Notes under the pieces: generated by a model
The model's database searches: none
What the model was told of the DNA's origin: nothing
Seen by the model: the letters and a program-made list of their open reading frames with translations, nothing else
Origin: Nitrosopumilus sp.
Lineage (GTDB): Archaea; Thermoproteota; Nitrososphaeria; Nitrososphaerales; Nitrosopumilaceae
Assembly: GCA_965214775.1 (NCBI GenBank)
Contig: OZ243974.1
Coordinates: forward strand, 2,720,001-2,784,000
DNA length: 64,000 nucleotides
Reading direction: 5' to 3'
Position numbers and translations under genes: made by a program
In this document: positions 6,222 through 56,331 of the stretch, piece after piece
Numbering within the stretch: position 1 is the first letter of the stretch
Layout of the letters: each line of letters begins with the position of its first letter

Positions 6222-6710
6222 AGACGCTATATGAAATCTTATCAGTATCCTGTGATATACAATTACCGTTGGGCCTGAGAGTCGATATGATCTTACCATG
6301 TACAAGGGTGTCTTACAGACTGACTCGCAACAGCAGGCGGAAAGCAATGTACCGCGCAGACGGTGAATGGGAGATTCCGCCCGGATCAGGCATTTTGATC
6401 AAAAAGGAGGTGATAACATGATCAACGTAGGAATAGACGTACACAAAAAGACATGCGTTGCAGCAGTAAAGGACGACTCTGGCAAGCTGCTAGAGCGATC
6501 CAAGTTTGAGAACAGCGTTTCTACAACAACGAATTTTGCAACAGACCTCAAGGCACAATACCCTGGACAGCTGTCAATCATGGCAGTATGCGAGTCCACT
6601 GTCACGCAGAGAAAGTATAAGAGGATGCATCGCTTAGCAACATCGTCCTGATTCGGAACACTGAGCTGGCAAGGGTCCACGGTAGGATTAGGTACGATTT
6701 CATATGGGAG
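6222..6710 (+). mobile_element. IS110 copy A, internally deleted (non-autonomous), both ends intact
   Basis: Ends match copies B/C; AG core at 6222-6223 and 6709-6710; recombinase deleted between CEST and TQRKY. Confidence 0.92.
6240..6382 (+). ncRNA. Putative bridge RNA of IS110 copy A (alternative target guides)
   Basis: Same stems as copy B; guides ATGATCT (6287-6293) and CTTACAG (6312-6318) match its own flanks CTTAT-AG-ATCAT; transcript ends not determinable. Confidence 0.7.
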
Positions 6711-24587: not shown

Positions 24588-24659
24588 GGGTCCCTAGTAT
24601 AACGGGAATACACTTGGTTGATACCCAAGGGATCCGGGTTCGATTCCCGGGGGGGTCCA
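24588..24659 (+). tRNA. Atypical tRNA with GAT anticodon (Ile by anticodon), possibly degenerate
   Basis: Cloverleaf GGGTCCC / GTAT-ATAC / CTTGG-TTGATAC-CCAAG / CCGGG-TTCGATT-CCCGG; extra G and two wobbles in acceptor; TTATAA box about 30 nt upstream. Confidence 0.7.
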
Positions 24660-24702: not shown

Positions 24703-25931
24703 GCAAGAGTTTACCCCTCCTCCGAGATACGGTGCAGCAGGCGTGATCATAAAGGCTCCAGACAGCAGTGACGTAGTATCTACGTCAGCCATTTGTTCAT
24801 CTTTACCACCTTTATCTCGCCCCTGCGCGTCATACTGCGCAGTGATCTCTGCATCTCCTTGACGGTCTTGTAAAGGCAGTTTGAAGTCGCCTTTTTGAAC
24901 CCGCGCCACTGCCCCTCCGAGTTGTTAAGCTCCGGCGCGTACGGCGGCAGGTACTTTAGCACCACGTCCCCGTTCCACTTGGCCATCATTCCATTGAGTT
25001 CTGCTGACTTGTGGTACGATGCGTTGTCGACAAACAACAACACCTTGCCGTACTTGCGGCGCAGTGTCCTGAGAAACTTGTAGAATGTTCCCGTGTTGGC
25101 CTTTTCGTAAAAGCGATAGTCAAACCTGTTTCTTGAGAGGGCCCCTATGACATAGAACCGCTTCCTAGACAGGCTGACGGGCGTATAGACCGGCTCTCCT
25201 ACGGGGTACCAGCTGTTCTTGACGTTCCATCCCAGTATGAACATGGACTCGTCGCCTATCATTACCGTGTACCCCTTTTTTGAATAGTACTTTGCGCTCT
25301 GCCTAGCTTTTTTTTTTGAACTCCTTTTTCTCGGATTCTGAGGCTGATTTTGGGTGTTTTGGCCTGGGCTTTCTGCATGAGAAGCCGATTCTGTGCAGCA
25401 GGTCGTACATGCTCGTTTCTGCATACGTGATGCCGAACTTCTTTTTGACGTGGGCAATGACCAGCGGCCCTGTCCATGTTGTGGCCTTAAAGCCGCAGTT
25501 GTCCGGGCCCTTGATCAGGTCTGTACGCAGCCGTTCAAGCTGTTTCTTGTCGAGCCTGCACGGGGCGCCATGCTTTATGTCAAACCTGCCCTCCAGGCCA
25601 TGCTTGTGCGCACGCACCAGTCAGTATCGTACGGTTCCATACGGCCTGCTCAGCTTCTCGGCAATATCATATATGCTCGCGCCGCACTTTCTCATGTGGT
25701 ATGCAAGGAGCCGGATTGCCGCCTTGGCGTCCTTCTCGGACTTGTGCATCCTAAAAAGCTCGTCCTTGCTTGCTATCCCGTACAGGAACGCTGTTCCCGT
25801 CGGTAATTCCTTCTTTCCTTTCATGTGTATATATGGGACTAATAGCTCTTAGATCCTTTGGTTGAAAAAAATTGTCCTTTTTGTGATCAATTGGTAGCCG
25901 AGGATACTACGCCTAAGGGGTAAACTCGTAC
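24703..25931. mobile_element. IS66-type MITE (homologue of 59980-60070) split by an IS630 insertion
   Basis: GCAAGAGTTTACCCC at 24703 and GGGGTAAACTCGTAC ending 25931; halves align to 59980-60070. Confidence 0.7.
24774..25909 (-). mobile_element. IS630-family element; split transposase with nonsense mutation
   Basis: TAGTATC...GATACTA ends; GDES, DNASYH, LPPYAPELNNSE; TGG>TGA at 25621; A-run frameshift near 25310; near-identical to 54041-56282. Confidence 0.9.
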
Positions 25932-26341: not shown

Positions 26342-26416
26342 GGGCCGGTGGTGTAATCGGGCAGCACAGTCCGGTTTCTCACCCGACTGGTACGGGTTCG
26401 AATCCCGTCCGGTCCA
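26342..26416 (+). tRNA. tRNA-Glu(CTC)-like gene with irregular anticodon arm
   Basis: GGGCCGG/CCGGTCC acceptor, ACGGG-TTCGAAT-CCCGT T arm; anticodon arm GTCCGG-TTTCTCAC-CCGAC has two extra bases; TTATAT box about 30 nt upstream. Confidence 0.65.
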
Positions 26417-26659
26417 GCCCACATTTTTGTTCAACCCGAAACTGGTGTGTGGCGCCGCGCCGGCGGCATGACGCGATCCCCTGTCATGTGCAATCTAGGA
26501 CGTCTGGGACACGGTGGTCTCCTGATTCGGCAACCGGCATGATTTTCTGGATTCTCCACCACGTTGATCAGGACTGGCGTGGCCGGGACGGATGCGCGGG
26601 TATTTCAGCTTCCGGTTTATTTCGTTGGTAACCATATCAGTAGACGCTATATGAAATCT

Positions 26660-26804
26660 TATCCGTATCCTGTGATATACTATTACTGTTGGGCCTGAGA
26701 GTCGATTGGAACTTACCATGTACAAGGGTGTTCCGTAGACTGACTCACAACAGCAGGCGGAAAGCAATATACCGCGCAGAAGACGGTGAATGGGAGATTC
26801 CGCC
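26660..26804 (+). ncRNA. Putative bridge RNA of IS110 copy B
   Basis: Two stem-internal-loop modules: GAGTC[TGGAACT]ACC..GGT[TCCGTAG]GACTC and GGCGGAA[..]ACCG..CGGT[ATGGGAG]TTCCGCC; guides match target and donor; ends approximate. Confidence 0.72.
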
Positions 26805-26840
26805 CGGATCAGGCATTTTGATCAGAAAGGAGGTGATAAC

Positions 26841-27920
26841 ATGATCAACGTAGGAATAGACGTACACAAAAAGACATGCGTTGCAGCAGTAAAGGATGAC
26901 TCTGGCAAGCTGCTAGAGCGATCCAAGTTTGAGAACAGCGTTTTGGCAACAACGAATTTTGCAACATATCTCAAGGAACAATACCGCGGACAGCTGCCAA
27001 TAAAGGCAGTATGCGAATCCACTGCCAACTACTGGATTATCGTACATGACACGCTTGAGGACTGCGGGATAGACACCGTGCTGGTGCATCCGGCAAAGGT
27101 CAAGGTGATAGCGCACGCCAAGATAAAGGACGACCGCGTGGATGCAAATATACTTGCCGACCTGCTCAGAGCAGACATGCTGCCAGAGTCGTTTGTGCCT
27201 GACAAGCACTATAGGGACCTCAGAATGCTGGGCAGGACCAGAACCGGCAAGACAGCAGAAGCCACCAGGTGCAAGAACAAGATACACGCAATACTTGCAA
27301 AGTATGACTATGATCTGCCCACACACGGCACGTTTACGATTTCTGCCATACAGTACATTCAAGACGGGATAAAGATGTCAGAGATTGACGCGGCAACGGT
27401 GAAGATGTACCTTGATGACATCAAGAGGATACAGGATCAGATAAAGGATCTGGAGCGCAGCATTGCCTCCGTATCCGAAAGCGATCCGAGGGCCAAGACG
27501 ATTATGACCATGCCTGGAATAAGCCATGTCTCTGCACTGACGATAATCTCTGAGATAGTAGATATCAGGAGGTTTGCCACTCCAGAAAAGCTCGTCTCGT
27601 ATGCAGTGCTGACTCCCTCGCGCAGGGACAGCGCAGACAGACACAAAGGAGGCGGCATAACAAAGCAGGGATCCGTGTGGCTGCGCCAAGCCATGGTCAA
27701 CTCGGCCACAGTCGCAGTACGAAACGACCCAAGGCTTGGTTCGATATATGAAAGGATAGGAAAGAGACGTGGATGGCAAAAGGCAAAGATTGCAGTTGCA
27801 AGACACATGCTGGAGATAATCTGGCACATGCTGACAACCGGAGAAGAGTACCGCACTCAGAATAAGACTCTCACGCAGAGAAAGTATATGAGGATGCATC
27901 GCATAGCAACATTGTCCTGA
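26841..27920 (+). CDS. IS110-family DEDD recombinase
   Basis: VGIDVHK, VCES, KDDRVDA, PSRRDSA; RBS AGGAGGTG before ATG 26841; conserved YAGL reads YAVL in this copy. Confidence 0.93.
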   Translation: MINVGIDVHKKTCVAAVKDDSGKLLERSKFENSVLATTNFATYLKEQYRGQLPIKAVCESTANYWIIVHDTLEDCGIDTVLVHPAKVKVIAHAKIKDDRVDANILADLLRADMLPESFVPDKHYRDLRMLGRTRTGKTAEATRCKNKIHAILAKYDYDLPTHGTFTISAIQYIQDGIKMSEIDAATVKMYLDDIKRIQDQIKDLERSIASVSESDPRAKTIMTMPGISHVSALTIISEIVDIRRFATPEKLVSYAVLTPSRRDSADRHKGGGITKQGSVWLRQAMVNSATVAVRNDPRLGSIYERIGKRRGWQKAKIAVARHMLEIIWHMLTTGEEYRTQNKTLTQRKYMRMHRIATLS

Positions 27921-28060
27921 TTCGGAACATCACGCTGGCAAGGGTCCACGGTAGGATTAGGTACGATTTCATATGGGTGTTCCTAGATGTACTTTTGAAG
28001 GCATGATGATTACGTAATTTACCGAGATTTTTTGACCATTACGATCTTAGATCAGGAGGT

Positions 28061-29416
28061 GTGTCAAACATCATCATGATGTCACCAACACAAAACGATG
28101 TGTTTGCACACCAGTACGACATAGCATCACGCCAGTTTAAAACATTGCGACAGCGGTTCCCCAAGCTCGGAATGGCAGTCTCAAAGAGTCACAACGCGGT
28201 GTACGGCCATGCCGACGTACTGCGCGTACTAAGCATCATGTCTGATAGGAAGATGTTTGTCAGGTCTGCCGTGACGCATCTTCGCAGGAAGGCCTCAAAA
28301 TACCACTGGTAGCAGCAGTATGACGGCGGAACTACTGCTGCTGCTGCTGTTACCTCCTCCAAGAAGGGCGGCACATACAGCTCCCGTACACCCCATCCGG
28401 TCTGGATCCTAAAGACCATCCGGAGCGCCGGTCTGGACGAGACGCAAAGGTGGTGCAACTCCATGTTACAGCACACGGTAAGAAACGGCCGCAGGTCCGG
28501 CATGTTACACAACACGGACGTAGTGGCAATAGACGCTACTGACGTCGAATACTATGGCAAGGGCCTAAAGGATGTAGCCAGAAAGTCAAAGCCCAAGAAC
28601 GGTACGTCTACTTTTCTCTCGCACATTACCGTGCACGGAATAGGATCCGATGACGGCTCTGACCTCGTGCTTTCCTCGCTGCAGCTTCCAAAAGATGCAA
28701 AACTGGCCGATTTCGTGTCTAAAATGATCCGCAAAGCGTCCAGATCAGGGACGAAGATCAAGACATACCTGTATGACCGGGGATTCTTTAATGTCAACTG
28801 CATGGTGGCCGCAGGCAAAAGCCCGGGCTACTACGTCATGCCTGCAGTCAAGAACAAGAGGATAAAGGCGGCAATAGAGGAGCATCACCATAAAAAGCGC
28901 GATGCGATATCTGACTATGCCATGACCAACAAGGAGGGCAAAAGCGTCACGTTCAGGCTGGTCATTGTGAAAAAGAAAGAAGATGAAGACGAAAACAAAG
29001 ACAAAGACACAGACAAAAACAAAAACAAAAACAAAGAGGAATGCACAGAAAAAAAGAAGGAAAAGAAAAAAGAAACGGCAGACGACTACTTGGTCTTTGC
29101 CACCAACATGCATGCCAAAAGCGTAGAGGCCGTCATAGCTCAGATACCAGAAGAGTACCGCATGCGGTGGGGAATCGAGACCGGGTTCAGGGTGATCAAG
29201 GGAGTAATGGGCAAGACATGCAGCAATTCGCCGGCAGTCAGGATGTTGTTATTCTACATGCCCCTCATACTGTACAATCTCTGGAGGACTGCCATATTCA
29301 TGGATGTGGAATCCAAATGGGGCGGATTTGCGGGAGGTAAGGAGTTTACCATGGCGTTGTTTGTCGAGTGTATTACAGATGCAGCAGACTCGTTTGTAAA
29401 TGATCGCGGAAAGTAG
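28061..29416 (+). pseudogene. ISH3-family transposase with single in-frame TAG (28310-28312)
   Basis: ORFs 28061..28312 and 28463..29416 are in one frame, open between them; AIDAT, YDRGFF, YRMRWGIETGFR. Confidence 0.82.
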
Positions 29417-29474
29417 TAGCGGCGGCCGCAGTGGTGCCGTGCCAGATGATGGTCTGCAAAAGTACACCTAGGAA

Positions 29475-29892
29475 CTCCCATATGAAATCGTACCTAATCC
29501 TACCGTGGACCCTTGCCAGCGTGATGTTCCGAATCAGGACAATGTTGCTATGCGATGCATCCTCTTATACTTTCTCTGCGTGAGAGCCTTGTTCTGAGTG
29601 CGGTACTCCTCTCCGGTTGTCAGCATGTGCCAGATTATCTCCAGCATGTGTCTTGCAACTGCAATCTTTGCCTTTTGCCATCCACGTCTCTTTCCTATCC
29701 TTTCATATATCGAACCAAGCCTTGGGTCGTTTCGTACTGCGACTGTGGCCGAGTTGACCATGGCCTGGCGCAGCCACACGGATCCCTGCTTTGTTATGCC
29801 GCCTCCTTTGTGTCTGTCTGCGCTGTCCCTGCGCGAGGGAGTCAGCCCTGCATACGAGACGAGCTTCTCCGGAGTGGCAAACCTCCTGATAT
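29475..29892 (-). mobile_element. IS110 copy D, 418-bp 3' fragment in tandem with copy C
   Basis: Duplicates 29893-30310; starts exactly at an internal AG site of the recombinase gene. Confidence 0.9.
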
Positions 29893-29951
29893 CTCCCATA
29901 TGAAATCGTACCTAATCCTACCGTGGACCCTTGCCAGCGTGATGTTCCGAA

Positions 29952-31031
29952 TCAGGACAATGTTGCTATGCGATGCATCCTCTTATACTTTCTCTGCGTG
30001 AGAGCCTTGTTCTGAGTGCGGTACTCCTCTCCGGTTGTCAGCATGTGCCAGATTATCTCCAGCATGTGTCTTGCAACTGCAATCTTTGCCTTTTGCCATC
30101 CACGTCTCTTTCCTATCCTTTCATATATCGAACCAAGCCTTGGGTCGTTTCGTACTGCGACTGTGGCCGAGTTGACCATGGCCTGGCGCAGCCACACGGA
30201 TCCCTGCTTTGTTATGCCGCCTCCTTTGTGTCTGTCTGCGCTGTCCCTGCGCGAGGGAGTCAGCCCTGCATACGAGACGAGCTTCTCCGGAGTGGCAAAC
30301 CTCCTGATATCTACTATCTCAGAGATTATCGTCAGTGCAATGACATGGCTTATTCCAGGCATGGTCATAATCGTCTTGGCCCTCGTATCGCTTTCGGATA
30401 CAGAGGCAATGCTGCGCTCCAGATCCTTTATCTGATCCTGTATCCTCTTGATGTCATCAAGGTACATCTTCACAGTTGCCGCGTCAATCTCTGACATTTT
30501 TATCCCGTCTTGGATGTGCTGTATGGCAGAAATCGTAAACGTGCTGTGCGTGGGCAGGTCATAGTCATACTTTGCAAGTATGGCGTGTATCTTGTTCTTG
30601 CATCTGGTGGCTTCTGCCGTCTTGCCGGTTCTGGTCCTGCCCAGCATTCTGAGGTCCCTGTAGTGCTTGTCAGGCACAAACGACTCTGGCAGCATGTCTG
30701 CTCTGAGCAGGTCGGCAAGTATATTTGCATCTACGCGGTCGTCCTTTATCTTGGCGTGCGCTATCACCTTGACCTTTGCCGGATGTACCAGCACGGTGTC
30801 TATCCCGCAGTCCTCAAGCGTGTCATGTACGATAATCCAATAGTTGGCAGTGGACTCGCATACTGCCTTTATTGGCAGCTGTCCGCAGTATTGTTCCTTG
30901 AGATATGTTGCAAAATTCGTTGTTGCCAAAACGCTGTTCTCAAACTTGGATCGCTCTAGCAGCTTGCCAGAGTCATCCTTTACTGCTGCAACGCATGTCT
31001 TTTTGTGTACGTCTATTCCTACGTTGATCAT
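29952..31031 (-). CDS. IS110-family DEDD recombinase (intact)
   Basis: Same motifs as copy B with canonical SYAGLTP. Confidence 0.94.
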   Translation of the reverse strand: MINVGIDVHKKTCVAAVKDDSGKLLERSKFENSVLATTNFATYLKEQYCGQLPIKAVCESTANYWIIVHDTLEDCGIDTVLVHPAKVKVIAHAKIKDDRVDANILADLLRADMLPESFVPDKHYRDLRMLGRTRTGKTAEATRCKNKIHAILAKYDYDLPTHSTFTISAIQHIQDGIKMSEIDAATVKMYLDDIKRIQDQIKDLERSIASVSESDTRAKTIMTMPGISHVIALTIISEIVDIRRFATPEKLVSYAGLTPSRRDSADRHKGGGITKQGSVWLRQAMVNSATVAVRNDPRLGSIYERIGKRRGWQKAKIAVARHMLEIIWHMLTTGEEYRTQNKALTQRKYKRMHRIATLS

Positions 31032-31067
31032 GTTATCACCTCCTTTCTGATCAAAATGCCTGATCCG

Positions 31068-31212
31068 GGCGGAATCTCCCATTCACCGTCTTCTGCGCGG
31101 TACATTGCTTTCCGCCTGCTGTTACGAGTCAGTCTACTGAACACCCTTGTACATGGTAAGTTCCGATCGACTCTCAGGCCCAACAGTAATTGTATATCAC
31201 AGGATACAGATA
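31068..31212 (-). ncRNA. Putative bridge RNA of IS110 copy C
   Basis: Minus-strand guides CGGAACT (31159-31165) and TCAGTAG (31134-31140); the latter matches the flank TCAGT-AG 7/7. Confidence 0.72.
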
Positions 31213-31298
31213 AGATTTCATATAGCGTCTACTGATATGGTTACGAATTCTGACAAATTAGGTGCCAACCCCGATGGCAGTACAAGGCAAGGCATTCC

Positions 31299-53036: not shown

Positions 53037-54040
53037 TATGGAACACGACAGTTATTACTGCAGTCAGCCCATCAAATATCGGAACATCTTTACCGGTAGG
53101 ATCTCTCCGCTGGCAAACAGATTCCGCACGGACTGCTCCATCTCATCAAGCGTATCAAACACCTTGGCAGACAGCCTCCGCTTTATCTCCCTCCACTGTA
53201 TCTCTACAGGATTGAGCTCCGGCGTGGACGGCGGCAGGTACTCCAGCATTAACTCGCCCTTGTACTTTTCCAGCGTCTTTTTTACGCCGACAGACTTGTG
53301 GTATGACGCATTATCTAGGAATATCAACACCTTTCCGTATTTTTCGTGCAGATTTTCCAAAAAGTCGCAAAAGCTGTCGGTGTTGGTCTTGTCATAGAAC
53401 ATATGGTAGAATATACCGACTGCCAGCACGCCGAAGATGTACCGGCGCTGCCGTGACAGCGTCAAGGGCGCCGTGATGCTCATGCCGCGCCTGAACCACC
53501 CATGTTTGGGGCTATTTGAGGTCTTTTGTATGGATGACTCGTCTTCTGTCATTACCGTATACCCTTGTGCCTCCTTTTCCCGTATCAGCTCCTGGGATGC
53601 CTCCTCGAACTCGTTCTGCTTGCGTTTTGAGGCGGACTTTGGGTTCTTTGGCCTTGATTTCTTCCAGGAGAACCCAAGCTCGTGTGCCAGCAGCCGCGTG
53701 CCGCTCTTGCTGTATTCTATGCCGAACTTCTTTTTGATGTGCCGCCTTATCAGGCCCGAGTCCCACAAACTGCTCTCAAAGCCGCACTCCTCTGATCCTG
53801 ACTTGAGATCCGCCTCAAGCTGTTTCAGCTGCGACTCACTCAGCTTGTGCTTGCGTCCCCTGCCTGGCCGCTCATGCCTTGCGCGTATTCCCTCGTCCTG
53901 CGCGCGGATGAGCCACCTGGATATGGTGGAATGTGCCCGGTCGAGGTTCTTTGCTATCTGTTCTGTATCGAGGTCGTCCTTGCGCTGCATGTATGCCAGC
54001 AACCTGTCGCGCTTTCTCTTGTCTGTCTCCTTTTTGTACG
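53037..54040 (-). mobile_element. IS630-family element, 5'-truncated by neighbouring IS630
   Basis: EDES, DNASYH, PELNPVE; ORF 53064..54092 reads out of the adjacent element end. Confidence 0.85.
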
Positions 54041-56282
54041 TAGTATCCTCGGCTACCAATTGATCACAAAAAGGACAATTTTTTTCAACCAAAGGATCTA
54101 AGAGCTATTAGTCCCATATATACACATGAAAGGAAAGAAGGAATTACCGACGGGAACAGCGTTCCTGTACGGGATAGCAAGCAAGGACGAGCTTTTTAGG
54201 ATGCACAAGTCCGAGAAGGACGCCAAGGCGGCAATCCGGCTCCTTGCATACCACATGAGAAAGTGCGGCGCGAGCATATATGATATTGCCGAGAAGCTGA
54301 GCAGGCCGTATGGAACCGTACGATACTGGCTGGTGCGTGCGCACAAGCATGGCCTGGAGGGCAGGTTTGACATAAAGCATGGCGCCCCGTGCAGGCTCGA
54401 CAAGAAACAGCTTGAACGGCTGCGCGCAGACCTGATCAAGGGCCCGGACAACTGCGGCTTTAAGGCCACAACATGGACAGGGCCGCTGGTCATTGCCCAC
54501 GTCAAAAAGAAGTTCGGCATCACGTATGCAGAAACGAGCATGTACGACCTGCTGCACAGAATCGGCTTCTCATGCAGAAAGCCCAGGCCAAAACACCCAA
54601 AATCAGCCTCAGAATCCGAGAAAAAGGAGTTCAAAAAAAAGCTAGGCAGAGCGCAAAGTACTATTCAAAAAAGGGGTACACGGTAATGATAGGCGACGAG
54701 TCCATGTTCATACTGGGATGGAACGTCAAGAACAGCTGGTACCCCGTAGGAGAGCCGGTCTATACGCCCGTCAGCCTGTCCAGGAAGGTTCTATGTCATA
54801 GGGGCCCTCTCAAGAAACAGGTTTGACTATAGCAATGATCAGAAGTCTTTGAGCCAAAACGGGATCATTCGAAAAGTATATGGATCGCCTAACCGGCGCA
54901 ATGACATGGCAAAAGAAACAGACAAAAGCCTGTCAGAGGCCATGCGCAAAGAAAAGGATGTCAAAGTCTACAAGAAGATCATGGCGCTGATGTTTGTGCT
55001 AGAAGACGACGTGGGCGTGCCTGAGACTGCAAGAAGGGTCCGGTGCAGTGAGAATTCCGTGCGCAACTGGCTGGCGAGGTTTTCGGAGGACGGCATAGAC
55101 GGTCTCCGGGATCTTCCCCGTTCCGGATGCAGGCCAAAGGTGGACAGAGAAAGTATTGCCGCCATAATGGACCTGTCCACTGCATGCAAAAGTACCGATG
55201 TTATGACGGTACGCGATGACATAAGGGATGCCACCGGGACAGAATACAGCACAGGACATGTCCGAAAACTGATGCGCCAGCACGGCCTGTCGCGCCGCAA
55301 GGTGCAAAACGTGCATGTCAACCATGCCACCCCAAGCTCCGTATACTCGTGGCAACGGTATCTTGAAAACGTGCGGATTCCGTGCCTGAAAAGAGAGGGT
55401 TTTACGCTGGTGTCATCTGATGAGGCGTTCTTCGTGCAGGGCGCATACGACAGATACGTGTGGGGTCCGGTCGGCACCAGAAGCGTGGCATCGTATTCGG
55501 GGGACCACACAAAGGTGGCCGTGTTTGGAAGCATCGCAGAAGACGGCAGAAGGCTGTTCAGGACGTTTACGGGATCGTTTAGGTCAGTGCAGTTCATACA
55601 ATGTCTGGAGGCGTTGCGCGCCAAGTTTGGCAAGGTTGCCGTCTTTTGCGACAGGTGGAGTGTGCACAGATCTATTGACGTCGCAGAATATCTGGCAGGT
55701 CATCCCGACATCAGGCTGATAATGATCCCGAAGGGATCGCCGTACCTCAATATCGTGGAAGAATGCTGGAACCTAGGCAAGCCTGTCGTTTTCAGGGGGA
55801 TAGTGTACAGGAAAATCAGCGAGCTACGGCATGCCATATCCGAGTACTACAGGACGGTGTCGTTTGCCCACCTTTGCATGTACAAGTACATTTACAGATC
55901 GCCGGTCAAAGCCCTCAATTACTTGTGACCGTTGCTATATCGCTTTTACGAAAAGGCCAACACGGGAACGTTCTACAAGTTTCTCAGGACACTGCGCCGC
56001 AAGTACGGCAAGGTGTTGTTGTTTGTCGACAACGCATCGTACCACAAGTCAGCAGAACTCAATGGAATGATGGCCAAGTGGAACGGGGACGTGGTGCTAA
56101 AGTACCTGCCGCCGTACGCGCCGGAGCTTAACAACTCGGAGGGGCAGTGGCGCGGGTTCAAAAAGGCGACTTCAAACTGCCTTTACAAGACCGTCAAGGA
56201 GATGCAGAGATCACTGCGCAGTATGACGCGCAGGGGCGAGATAAAGGTGGTAAAGATGAACAAATGGCTGACGTAGATACTA
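54041..56282 (+). mobile_element. IS630-family element (same as 24774-25909) interrupted by another IS630
   Basis: TAGTATC...GATACTA ends; orfA 54126..54686, orfB split at 54829/55938. Confidence 0.9.
54830..55937 (+). mobile_element. Nested IS630-family element with single-ORF transposase (54849/54907..55928)
   Basis: TAGCAATGATCA / TGACCGTTGCTA ends, TA duplication restores host GACTATCGC; SDEA, DRWSVH, SPYLNIVEECW. Confidence 0.9.
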
Positions 56283-56331
56283 CGTCTTGTGCAGGTAGGA
56301 GCGACTCGTATTTGGCAGGAATTTGCCCCCT

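Follow-up and report, generated by a model that had tools for sequence, protein, structure and literature searches.

The subject of this analysis is a mobile element, designated copy B, that lies in a 64,000-nt stretch of a Nitrosopumilus sp. genome of 2,833,656 bp; this stretch is called the window, and coordinates are positions in it unless marked 'genome'. Copy B is a full-length member of the IS110 family, and its 199-nt left end very probably encodes a bispecific guide RNA, of the kind known as bridge RNA or seekRNA, for the DEDD/serine recombinase whose gene lies just downstream. Among programmable systems that rearrange genomes, bridge and seek RNAs form the newest class; to our knowledge, those tested at the bench are all bacterial. 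The initial annotation of the window had proposed such a system for a thaumarchaeon, and the comparison of predicted guides with insertion sites, described below, supports that proposal. The element is made up as follows.

26642 to 27977, forward strand: copy B, full-length IS110-family element, 1336 bp including the left AG; bounded by alignment of 18 left and 14 right ends from the genome and by contigs of other sequencing runs, which diverge at 26642 and 27977
26642 to 26648, forward strand: 7-bp terminal extension on the left, AGACGCT, whose first two bases (26642-26643) are the core AG (end alignment)
26649 to 26658, forward strand: left subterminal inverted repeat ATATGAAATC, reverse-complementary to 27965-27974
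26807 to 26823, forward strand: hairpin GATCA-N7-TGATC with a run of four T, paired by RNAalifold (179-183 with 198-202); a Shine-Dalgarno-like GGAGGTGA follows at 26829-26836
26841 to 27920, forward strand: recombinase gene, 359 amino acids (open reading frame and domain matches)
27965 to 27977, forward strand: right subterminal inverted repeat GATTTCATAT and 3-bp extension GGG (end alignment)

The ends are defined by the other copies. A BLAST search of the genome with copy B returned 18 left ends and 14 right ends: the left ends all begin AGACGCTATATGAAATC or a variant of it, except for one diverged copy, and all 14 right ends terminate in ...GATTTCATATGGG. AG comes next in 13 of these; the exception is copy B itself, in which the right core position (27978-27979) reads TG instead of AG. 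The subterminal inverted repeat is perfect over 10 bp, as it is in the relatives. The genome also holds uninterrupted sites that carry a single AG, three of CTTAT-AG-ATCAT and seven of TTTAT-AG-ATCTC; a short repeat reading CAAAC-AG-ATT occurs in 13 copies, three occupied by the element, nine reading AGAT after the site and one diverging there. As AG stands on both sides of insertions and once in empty sites, insertion takes place at the AG, with no further duplication.

The gene product is readily placed in the family. It matches PF01548 (DEDD_Tnp_IS110, E 3.3e-28) and PF02371 (Transposase_20, E 5.8e-21), and scores 245.5 bits, at a cutoff of 140, against the NCBIfam model NF033542, 'IS110 family RNA-guided transposase'. 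Similarity to the solved IS621 and ISCro4 transposases is remote, at E about 1e-11 (IS621, 47.4 bits, E 1.3e-11); residues D7, E59, D98, D101 and S264 align with catalytic D11, E60, D102, D105 and S241 of IS621 (chain numbering offset by 2), whose roles are described in PMC11208158. The open reading frame finder placed the start at 26790, giving 376 amino acids by the addition of 17 codons, with its ATG inside the predicted donor guide ATGGGAG; the start at 26841 is preferred because of the conserved Shine-Dalgarno-like site and the MINVGIDVHK beginning. The non-coding flanks of the gene measure 199 nt upstream versus 57 nt downstream. The best plasmid-borne relatives in a tblastn search are haloarchaeal and rhizobial 'IS110 family transposases' of 36-39% identity; their protein names read only 'IS110 family transposase' and do not separate the IS1111 branch from the IS110 branch.

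The upstream 199 nt are predicted to fold into two modules, each a stem enclosing an internal loop, behind a 5' hairpin; the two modules had been drawn in the initial annotation, and alignment recovers the same stems.

26672 to 26686, forward strand: 5' hairpin GUGAUA-UAC-UAUUAC (helix 1); 6 of 6 pairs with double changes, 72.5% of cells paired
26699 to 26746, forward strand: target-binding module; basal stem 26699-26704 with 26741-26746 (helix 2), apical hairpin 26714-26730 (helix 3)
26707 to 26713, forward strand: loop-1 5' strand TGGAACT, complementary to top-strand AG plus right flank (like a right target guide, RTG)
26732 to 26738, forward strand: loop-1 3' strand TCCGTAG, same sense as left flank TCAGT plus AG (like a left target guide, LTG; 6 of 7 in copy B)
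26756 to 26804, forward strand: donor-binding module; basal GGCGGAA 26756-26762 with TTCCGCC 26798-26804, apical hairpin 26771-26787
26763 to 26765, forward strand: first bases of loop-2 5' strand, AGC, complementary to left-end bases 5-7, GCT (like a right donor guide, RDG)
26790 to 26796, forward strand: loop-2 3' strand ATGGGAG, equal to right end ATGGG plus core AG, 7 of 7 (like a left donor guide, LDG)

Support for this fold comes from comparison. Structure statistics were taken over 27 pairs in 51 matches aligned by a covariance model, which amount to 46 distinct sequences. Helices 2 and 3 of the target module are 97.7% and 98.9% paired, with four and two pairs changed on both sides; the donor apical stem (helix 5) is 94.2% paired, with three such pairs. 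Overall, 84.1% of cells are standard pairs, versus 76.7% after shuffling and 35-43% when partners are slid, and 18 of the 27 pairs are double-changed, versus 12.2 in shuffles (none of 500 as high); the pairing figures are flattered by an alignment that was itself fitted to the structure, and a structure-blind run agrees with them. In that run, with 25 left ends simply aligned by MAFFT and passed to RNAalifold, the same stems surround both loops, with compensatory changes from U-A to C-G in seven sequences and from A-U to G-C in eight and in six. The donor basal stem (GCGGA/UCCGC) is nearly invariant, and in relatives it is shifted one column further on; for these reasons it speaks neither for the fold nor against it. 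Several G-U pairs are close to constant, for instance at columns 39/122 (45 of 46 sequences) and 49/108 (44 of 46). Since they would read C-A on the opposite strand, the RNA strand is the sense strand of the gene. A kink-turn or C/D-box reading of the CUGA that follows the loop-1 guide was considered and rejected, because these bases sit in the covarying basal stem and become CUGG or CUAA in relatives. In one other genome (G117; loci L037, L045, L051, L054 and L059) some 40 nt of GC-rich sequence are inserted into the target apical hairpin, with guides and stems retained.

The loop-1 strands track the flanks. Copy B is flanked as TCAGT-AG-(element)-TG-TTCCT; its left guide agrees at 6 of 7 positions, its right guide at 5 of 7 with its own TG plus TTCCT and at 6 of 7 with the AG form. 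Copy C, also in the window, has guides CGGAACT and TCAGTAG between flanks TCAGT-AG and AG-TTCCT (left 7 of 7, right 6 of 7). Copy A has ATGATCT and CTTACAG between CTTAT-AG and AG-ATCAT (left 6 of 7, right 7 of 7), so that different guide words accompany different flanks. These correspondences had been quoted in the initial annotation, for B and C as matches to one target and for A as a change of both strands in step with its flanks; all the strings were found at the places given, and the change in A is as described. Contigs of other runs carry a variant, CTTAC, at the guide position 26732-26738 of copy B.

A wider table makes the same comparison over 44 copies, 17 from this genome and 27 from relatives, which reduce to 33 distinct left pairs and 16 distinct right pairs. 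The relatives were found by protein (16 loci, in Nitrosopumilaceae, Nitrososphaera and other thaumarchaeal metagenome-assembled genomes, MAGs) and by the home-built covariance model. Excluded from the test were L033 (left end rearranged), L060 (truncated), the second match in L009, L040 (from an unpublished genome, G132, whose sequence was not used), g369543/L018 (left boundary diverged), g2343070/L031 (internal duplication), and L045, L051, L054 and L048, whose guides and flank words are the same as those of L037 or L043. Left guides agree with left flanks at 138 of 165 positions, where shuffling gives 64.0 on average; right guides agree at 58 of 80, where it gives 35.4. On either side, none of 100,000 shuffles reached the observed value. 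Closely related copies show joint change: near-identical L005 and L007 differ together in guide and flank, on the left (GTAAG/GTATG) and on the right (TTTAC/GTTAC), and in L035, L043 and L058, all of one genome, guide and flank change jointly to GCAAA, GCGAA and TCAAA. Three more copies in this genome, examined later and outside the shuffle test, agree on the left at 5 of 5, 4 of 5 and 4 of 5.

The donor loop is less variable. Its 3' strand, ATGGGAG, had been matched in the initial annotation to a predicted circle junction, and does agree 7 of 7 with the right end plus AG; the same equality holds in every relative for which a right end was found. The other donor strand had been credited with AGC alone, which is correct; in addition, these three bases covary with left-end bases 5-7 among the relatives (GCT/AGC, GTT/AAC, ACT/AGT, GCC/GGC or GGT; the exceptions are L049, L058, L039 and L046), and because of this covariation the match is taken as real. 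The equivalent donor guide of IS621 likewise pairs discontiguously, according to PMC11208160. There is in addition a 'handshake' lead, in which the two bases after each 3' guide are collinear with the post-insertion junction: AC after loop 1 fits most lineages, the RNA reads AA where the left end is AGAT, and the bases after loop 2 fit the right flank only partly.

The known systems offer two points of comparison. In the IS1111 elements described with seekRNAs (Siddiquee et al. 2024, PMC11187229), there are 7-bp left and 3-bp right extensions, subterminal repeats and a reversed guide order. The extensions AGACGCT and GGG are like those of ISEc11, ISPa11 and ISKpn4; the order of guides is alike, with the complement of the top strand first, the reverse of IS621; and alike are the absence of a target duplication and the natural reprogramming among close relatives. 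Subterminal repeats there are 'usually 11-13' bp, compared with 10 bp here, within the 7-17 bp range of that branch. The long non-coding region of IS1111 elements lies 'usually' downstream of the gene, whereas here the RNA is upstream, a departure from the pattern; the same source lists rare IS1111-type exceptions with an upstream region, for example ISMtsp17. The host, too, is different: an ammonia-oxidising archaeon.

With IS621 (PMC11208160, PMC11208158) the element shares a left-end RNA upstream of the gene, the order of 5' hairpin, target loop and donor loop, and guide strands that both overlap a 2-nt core; it shares also the catalytic DEDD and Ser residues. It differs in the placing of the left guides, which in this element are on the 3' side of the loop; in the core, which is CT on the sense strand of the IS621 gene and AG here, that is, CT on the opposite strand; and in its 10-bp subterminal repeats, where IS621 has 2-3 bp. 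Viewed from the recombination site, the RNA-plus-gene cassette would be inverted relative to IS621. The initial annotation had likened the recombinase to IS621; the domains, catalytic residues and 2-nt core uphold the likeness, and the ends and guide order do not, being of IS1111 type. The element is, then, a member of the IS110 family in the broad sense, with its domains, catalytic residues, a shared 2-nt core without duplication and loops of predicted dual complementarity; within it, it is IS1111-like by ends and predicted guide order, and the upstream position of the RNA alone is IS110-like. The mechanism is already known from bacterial IS110 and IS1111 elements; the archaeal element adds a member and leaves that mechanism unchanged.

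Distribution is narrow in the genomes searched. The covariance model, which had been foreseen in the initial annotation as a check on the left end and came out in favour of it, finds a match in 9 of the class's 151 sampled genomes, every one of them in the same family: this genome and 8 of the 80 others in that family (the tally of nine counts the unpublished G132). None of the 70 genomes of eleven other families of the class gave a match. On relatives outside the class the model gives weak matches, E 0.018 upstream of a haloarchaeal gene and E 0.62 downstream of a rhizobial one, both in single copies whose ends are not fixed. Literature searches listed no account of bridge RNAs in ammonia-oxidising archaea, which does not prove that none exists; the ISfinder-wide RNA predictions of PMC11208160 and PMC11187229 may include relatives.

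Further copies in the window bear on how the family has spread.

6222 to 6708, forward strand: copy A, a 487-bp internally deleted derivative with the left end kept whole (alignment; three uninterrupted copies of its target known)
6287 to 6293, 6312 to 6318 and 6367 to 6373, forward strand: copy A guides ATGATCT and CTTACAG, and donor strand ATGGGAG
29895 to 31230, reverse strand: copy C, full length, with its gene at 29952-31031 (repeat search and end alignment)
31159 to 31165, 31134 to 31140 and 31076 to 31082, reverse strand: copy C guides CGGAACT and TCAGTAG, and donor strand ATGGGAG
29477 to 29894, reverse strand: tandem repeat of part of copy C, its final ~416 bp, joined through AG at an internal site, ATAGT-AG-ATATC
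27978 to 29476, strand not assigned: body of the host insertion sequence, ISH3/IS4-like, with a copy of the element in each terminal inverted repeat (B and C)

Copy C is 97% identical to copy B. Intact 359-codon frames are found in three full-length copies: B, C and the one at genome 2030284 (g2030284). There are two independent kinds of gene-less derivative of about 480 bp, and both keep the complete 199-nt region and both ends; the deletion joint of one, from 26849 to 27714, is present also in contigs of two of four other sequencing runs.

The initial annotation had counted two natural specificities in the genome. That count was too low: read from guides and flanks, there are at least five or six putative specificities, and the target classes are these.

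TCAGT-AG-TTCC (copies B, C and g2030284): within the terminal inverted repeat of an ISH3/IS4-like element, 4-5 bases in
CTTAT-AG-ATCAT (copy A): leader of an IS5-like element
TTTAT-AG-ATC(A/T)C: ahead of an IS630-family transposase gene, 24 nt from its start codon
CAAAC-AG-ATTA: a short interspersed repeat
GTATG/GTAAG-AG-...: used by a second subfamily in the same genome

Full-length copies with an intact gene are found in the TCAGT class only; the other classes consist of truncated copies or of the ~480-bp deletion derivatives. The three members of the TCAGT class share just ~14 bases of flank on the left and 9 on the right, which marks them as independent insertions at different loci. Their host, the ISH3/IS4-like element, scores 129.6 bits against the NCBIfam ISH3 family, below the cutoff of 225, and has seven other full copies that end ...CAGT/AGTTCC. 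A case of targets inside other mobile elements is known and is alike in this; here the target elements are different ones and the host is archaeal, and a single genome contains several target classes, in part on gene-less derivatives.

How the parts would work together can be set out by extension from the biochemistry of IS621 and IS1111. The element would leave as a circle, its ends joined through one AG (...GATTTCATATGGG-AG-ACGCTATATGAAATC...); the complex of recombinase and RNA would bring this junction to a target of the form NNNNN-AG-NNNN(N); and strands would be exchanged at the AG, which is CT on the opposite strand, leaving no target duplication. The 3' strand of the target loop, 5 nt and AG with the sequence of the left target half and core, would pair with the bottom strand, and the 5' strand would pair with AG and the right target half on the top strand; in the donor loop, AGC would pair with left-end bases 5-7. 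Changes in the loop-1 strands would retarget the element, as appears to have occurred repeatedly in nature, and the ~480-bp derivatives, each with its own guide, would rely for movement on recombinase supplied in trans.

A number of observations weigh against the guide-RNA interpretation, or at least against its application to every copy. None of the 24 sequencing runs listed is on record as RNA; the case is built on DNA sequence. Folded alone by minimum free energy, the left end of copy B does no better than shuffled versions of itself (z = -0.95; 35 of 200 shuffles as good), and Rfam at gathering scores finds two tRNAs in the whole window and no family that matches the left end; between 26500 and 28100, with E up to 10, two chance-level matches are all that it returns. 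Copy B has one mismatch in its left guide, and TG at its right core. Some copies match their own guides poorly: on the left g2169386 (1 of 5) and g1690518 (2 of 5), on the right g2634801 (2 of 5) and g2787934 (1 of 5), and L049 on both sides (2 of 5 each); two of these five are visibly chimeric or nested. In the donor loop, ATGGGAG and the right end are both invariant, which gives consistency without covariation, and the second donor guide amounts to three contiguous bases that stop short of the core, the expected AGCGTCT reading AGCAATAT. Seven of the relatives (L002, L005, L007, L009, L010, L014 and L016) come from a single MAG record, CBDCCK010000002.1, which is a very close relative of this genome or shares its elements; one of its flanks is identical to this genome's at genome 1191357, and because of this the record counts as a near relative and provides no independent witness. 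Finally, contigs of four other runs over 26400-28300, short and broken by repeats, contain no joint of right to left end and no copy B site free of the element; this silence on the circle junction weighs little, because contigs cannot show rare molecules. What the same contigs do show is the element in an internally deleted form, and flanks other than those of copy B at 26642 and 27977.

Some of these observations can be taken up by a different account, in which the family does use a bridge RNA and the copies in the window are immobile relics, whose matches between guide and flank record past insertions and nothing more. Copies differ from each other by 3-8%, many are truncated or internally deleted, and the defects of copy B and the silent contigs fit as well; on the other side stand the three full-length copies with intact frames, the good fit of copy C to its target, and the independent insertion of one guide class, that of the terminal inverted repeat, at three loci, while the contigs count for little here also. 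That the copies are relics is, on this evidence, rather unlikely. An account that dispenses with RNA, and has the flank-like heptamers act as DNA, either as binding sites for the recombinase or as captured copies of the target, can appeal to a body of evidence drawn wholly from DNA, and to a tandem structure at genome 2788411 which suggests that a target half-site can be supplied by the guide-coding DNA. It is very improbable: the heptamers lie in internal loops framed by stems that change in compensation, these stems hold strand-specific G-U pairs for which double-stranded DNA sites have no need, and RNA is essential in both of the branches of the family studied, as stated in PMC11208160 and PMC11187229. 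Nor is a structured 5' leader for translational control of the recombinase, with flank matches due to coincidence or shared ancestry, a serious contender. The hairpin and the strong Shine-Dalgarno-like GGAGGTGA right before the ATG are what such a leader would have; as a complete account it is extremely improbable, since no shuffle equals the agreement of guides and flanks, guide and flank shift jointly between near-identical copies, and derivatives that have lost the gene retain the entire region.

The reading we favour, a guide RNA encoded in the left end, can be extended to the lineage as a whole. In this extended form, an IS1111-like lineage, found in one family of ammonia-oxidising archaea among the genomes searched, would have moved its bridge RNA upstream of the gene, and would operate as a multi-guide system: one or two types of recombinase serving at least five or six guide RNAs, with ~480-bp gene-less derivatives, each keeping a target loop of its own, carrying several of these. 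Because nearly all the targets belong to competing insertion sequences (ISH3/IS4-like, IS5-like, IS630), in their terminal repeats or leaders, the elements might prey on other transposons, or silence them, under RNA guidance. An archaeal promoter (TATA box and B recognition element, TATA/BRE) would be needed for expression, perhaps one re-formed when the circle closes, where bacterial elements have a -35/-10. Taken together these proposals are possible but more doubtful than probable, and are offered tentatively. TATA-like words occur in the right and left ends, and are not conserved across the family.

Several consequences would follow from a compact archaeal system of this kind, with a recombinase of 359 amino acids and an RNA of about 150 nt. 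Its rules are legible from natural examples, 5+2+4-5 target bases around an AG core; the natural series of guide swaps within one genome provides a ready yardstick for bench assays; and the occurrence of an upstream RNA together with ends and a guide order of IS1111 type bears on the relation of the family's two branches.

The genome also contains rearranged copies. The join of the tandem repeat in copy C (29893-29894) is at a site, ATAGT-AG-ATATC, that matches the left half of the guide only. It looks like an insertion into a half-matching site within another copy, followed by homologous deletion; 'half-match' recombination of a comparable kind is described in bioRxiv 10.64898/2026.08.31.748434. 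At genome 2787934-2788694 (L057), an AG links a gene-less derivative, at its right end, to a point midway along the left end of another copy, and the join falls exactly on the DNA that encodes the left target guide (TTTAT-AG/ACTGA); guide-coding DNA seems, from this arrangement, to have served as a target half-site. At genome 2634801-2633347, the left flank fits the copy's own guide at 4 of 5 positions and the right flank is the IS630-family target, at 2 of 5; recombination between two copies at different sites is the likely source of the mismatch. In the MAG record mentioned above, a near-identical gene-less derivative (L009, at 1531-1668, and L010) lies in the same IS630-family leader.

The host copy at 27978-29476 has about 10 extra inverted-repeat bases (GTAACCATAT) beyond the usual ends, seen elsewhere only at genome 2030284. 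The two tRNA genes found by Rfam are at 24588-24658 and 26342-26416, the latter 225 nt upstream of copy B. The window overall is rich in insertion sequences; its long inverted repeats of 99-100% identity, 24770-25911 versus 54039-56286, are two copies of another mobile element.

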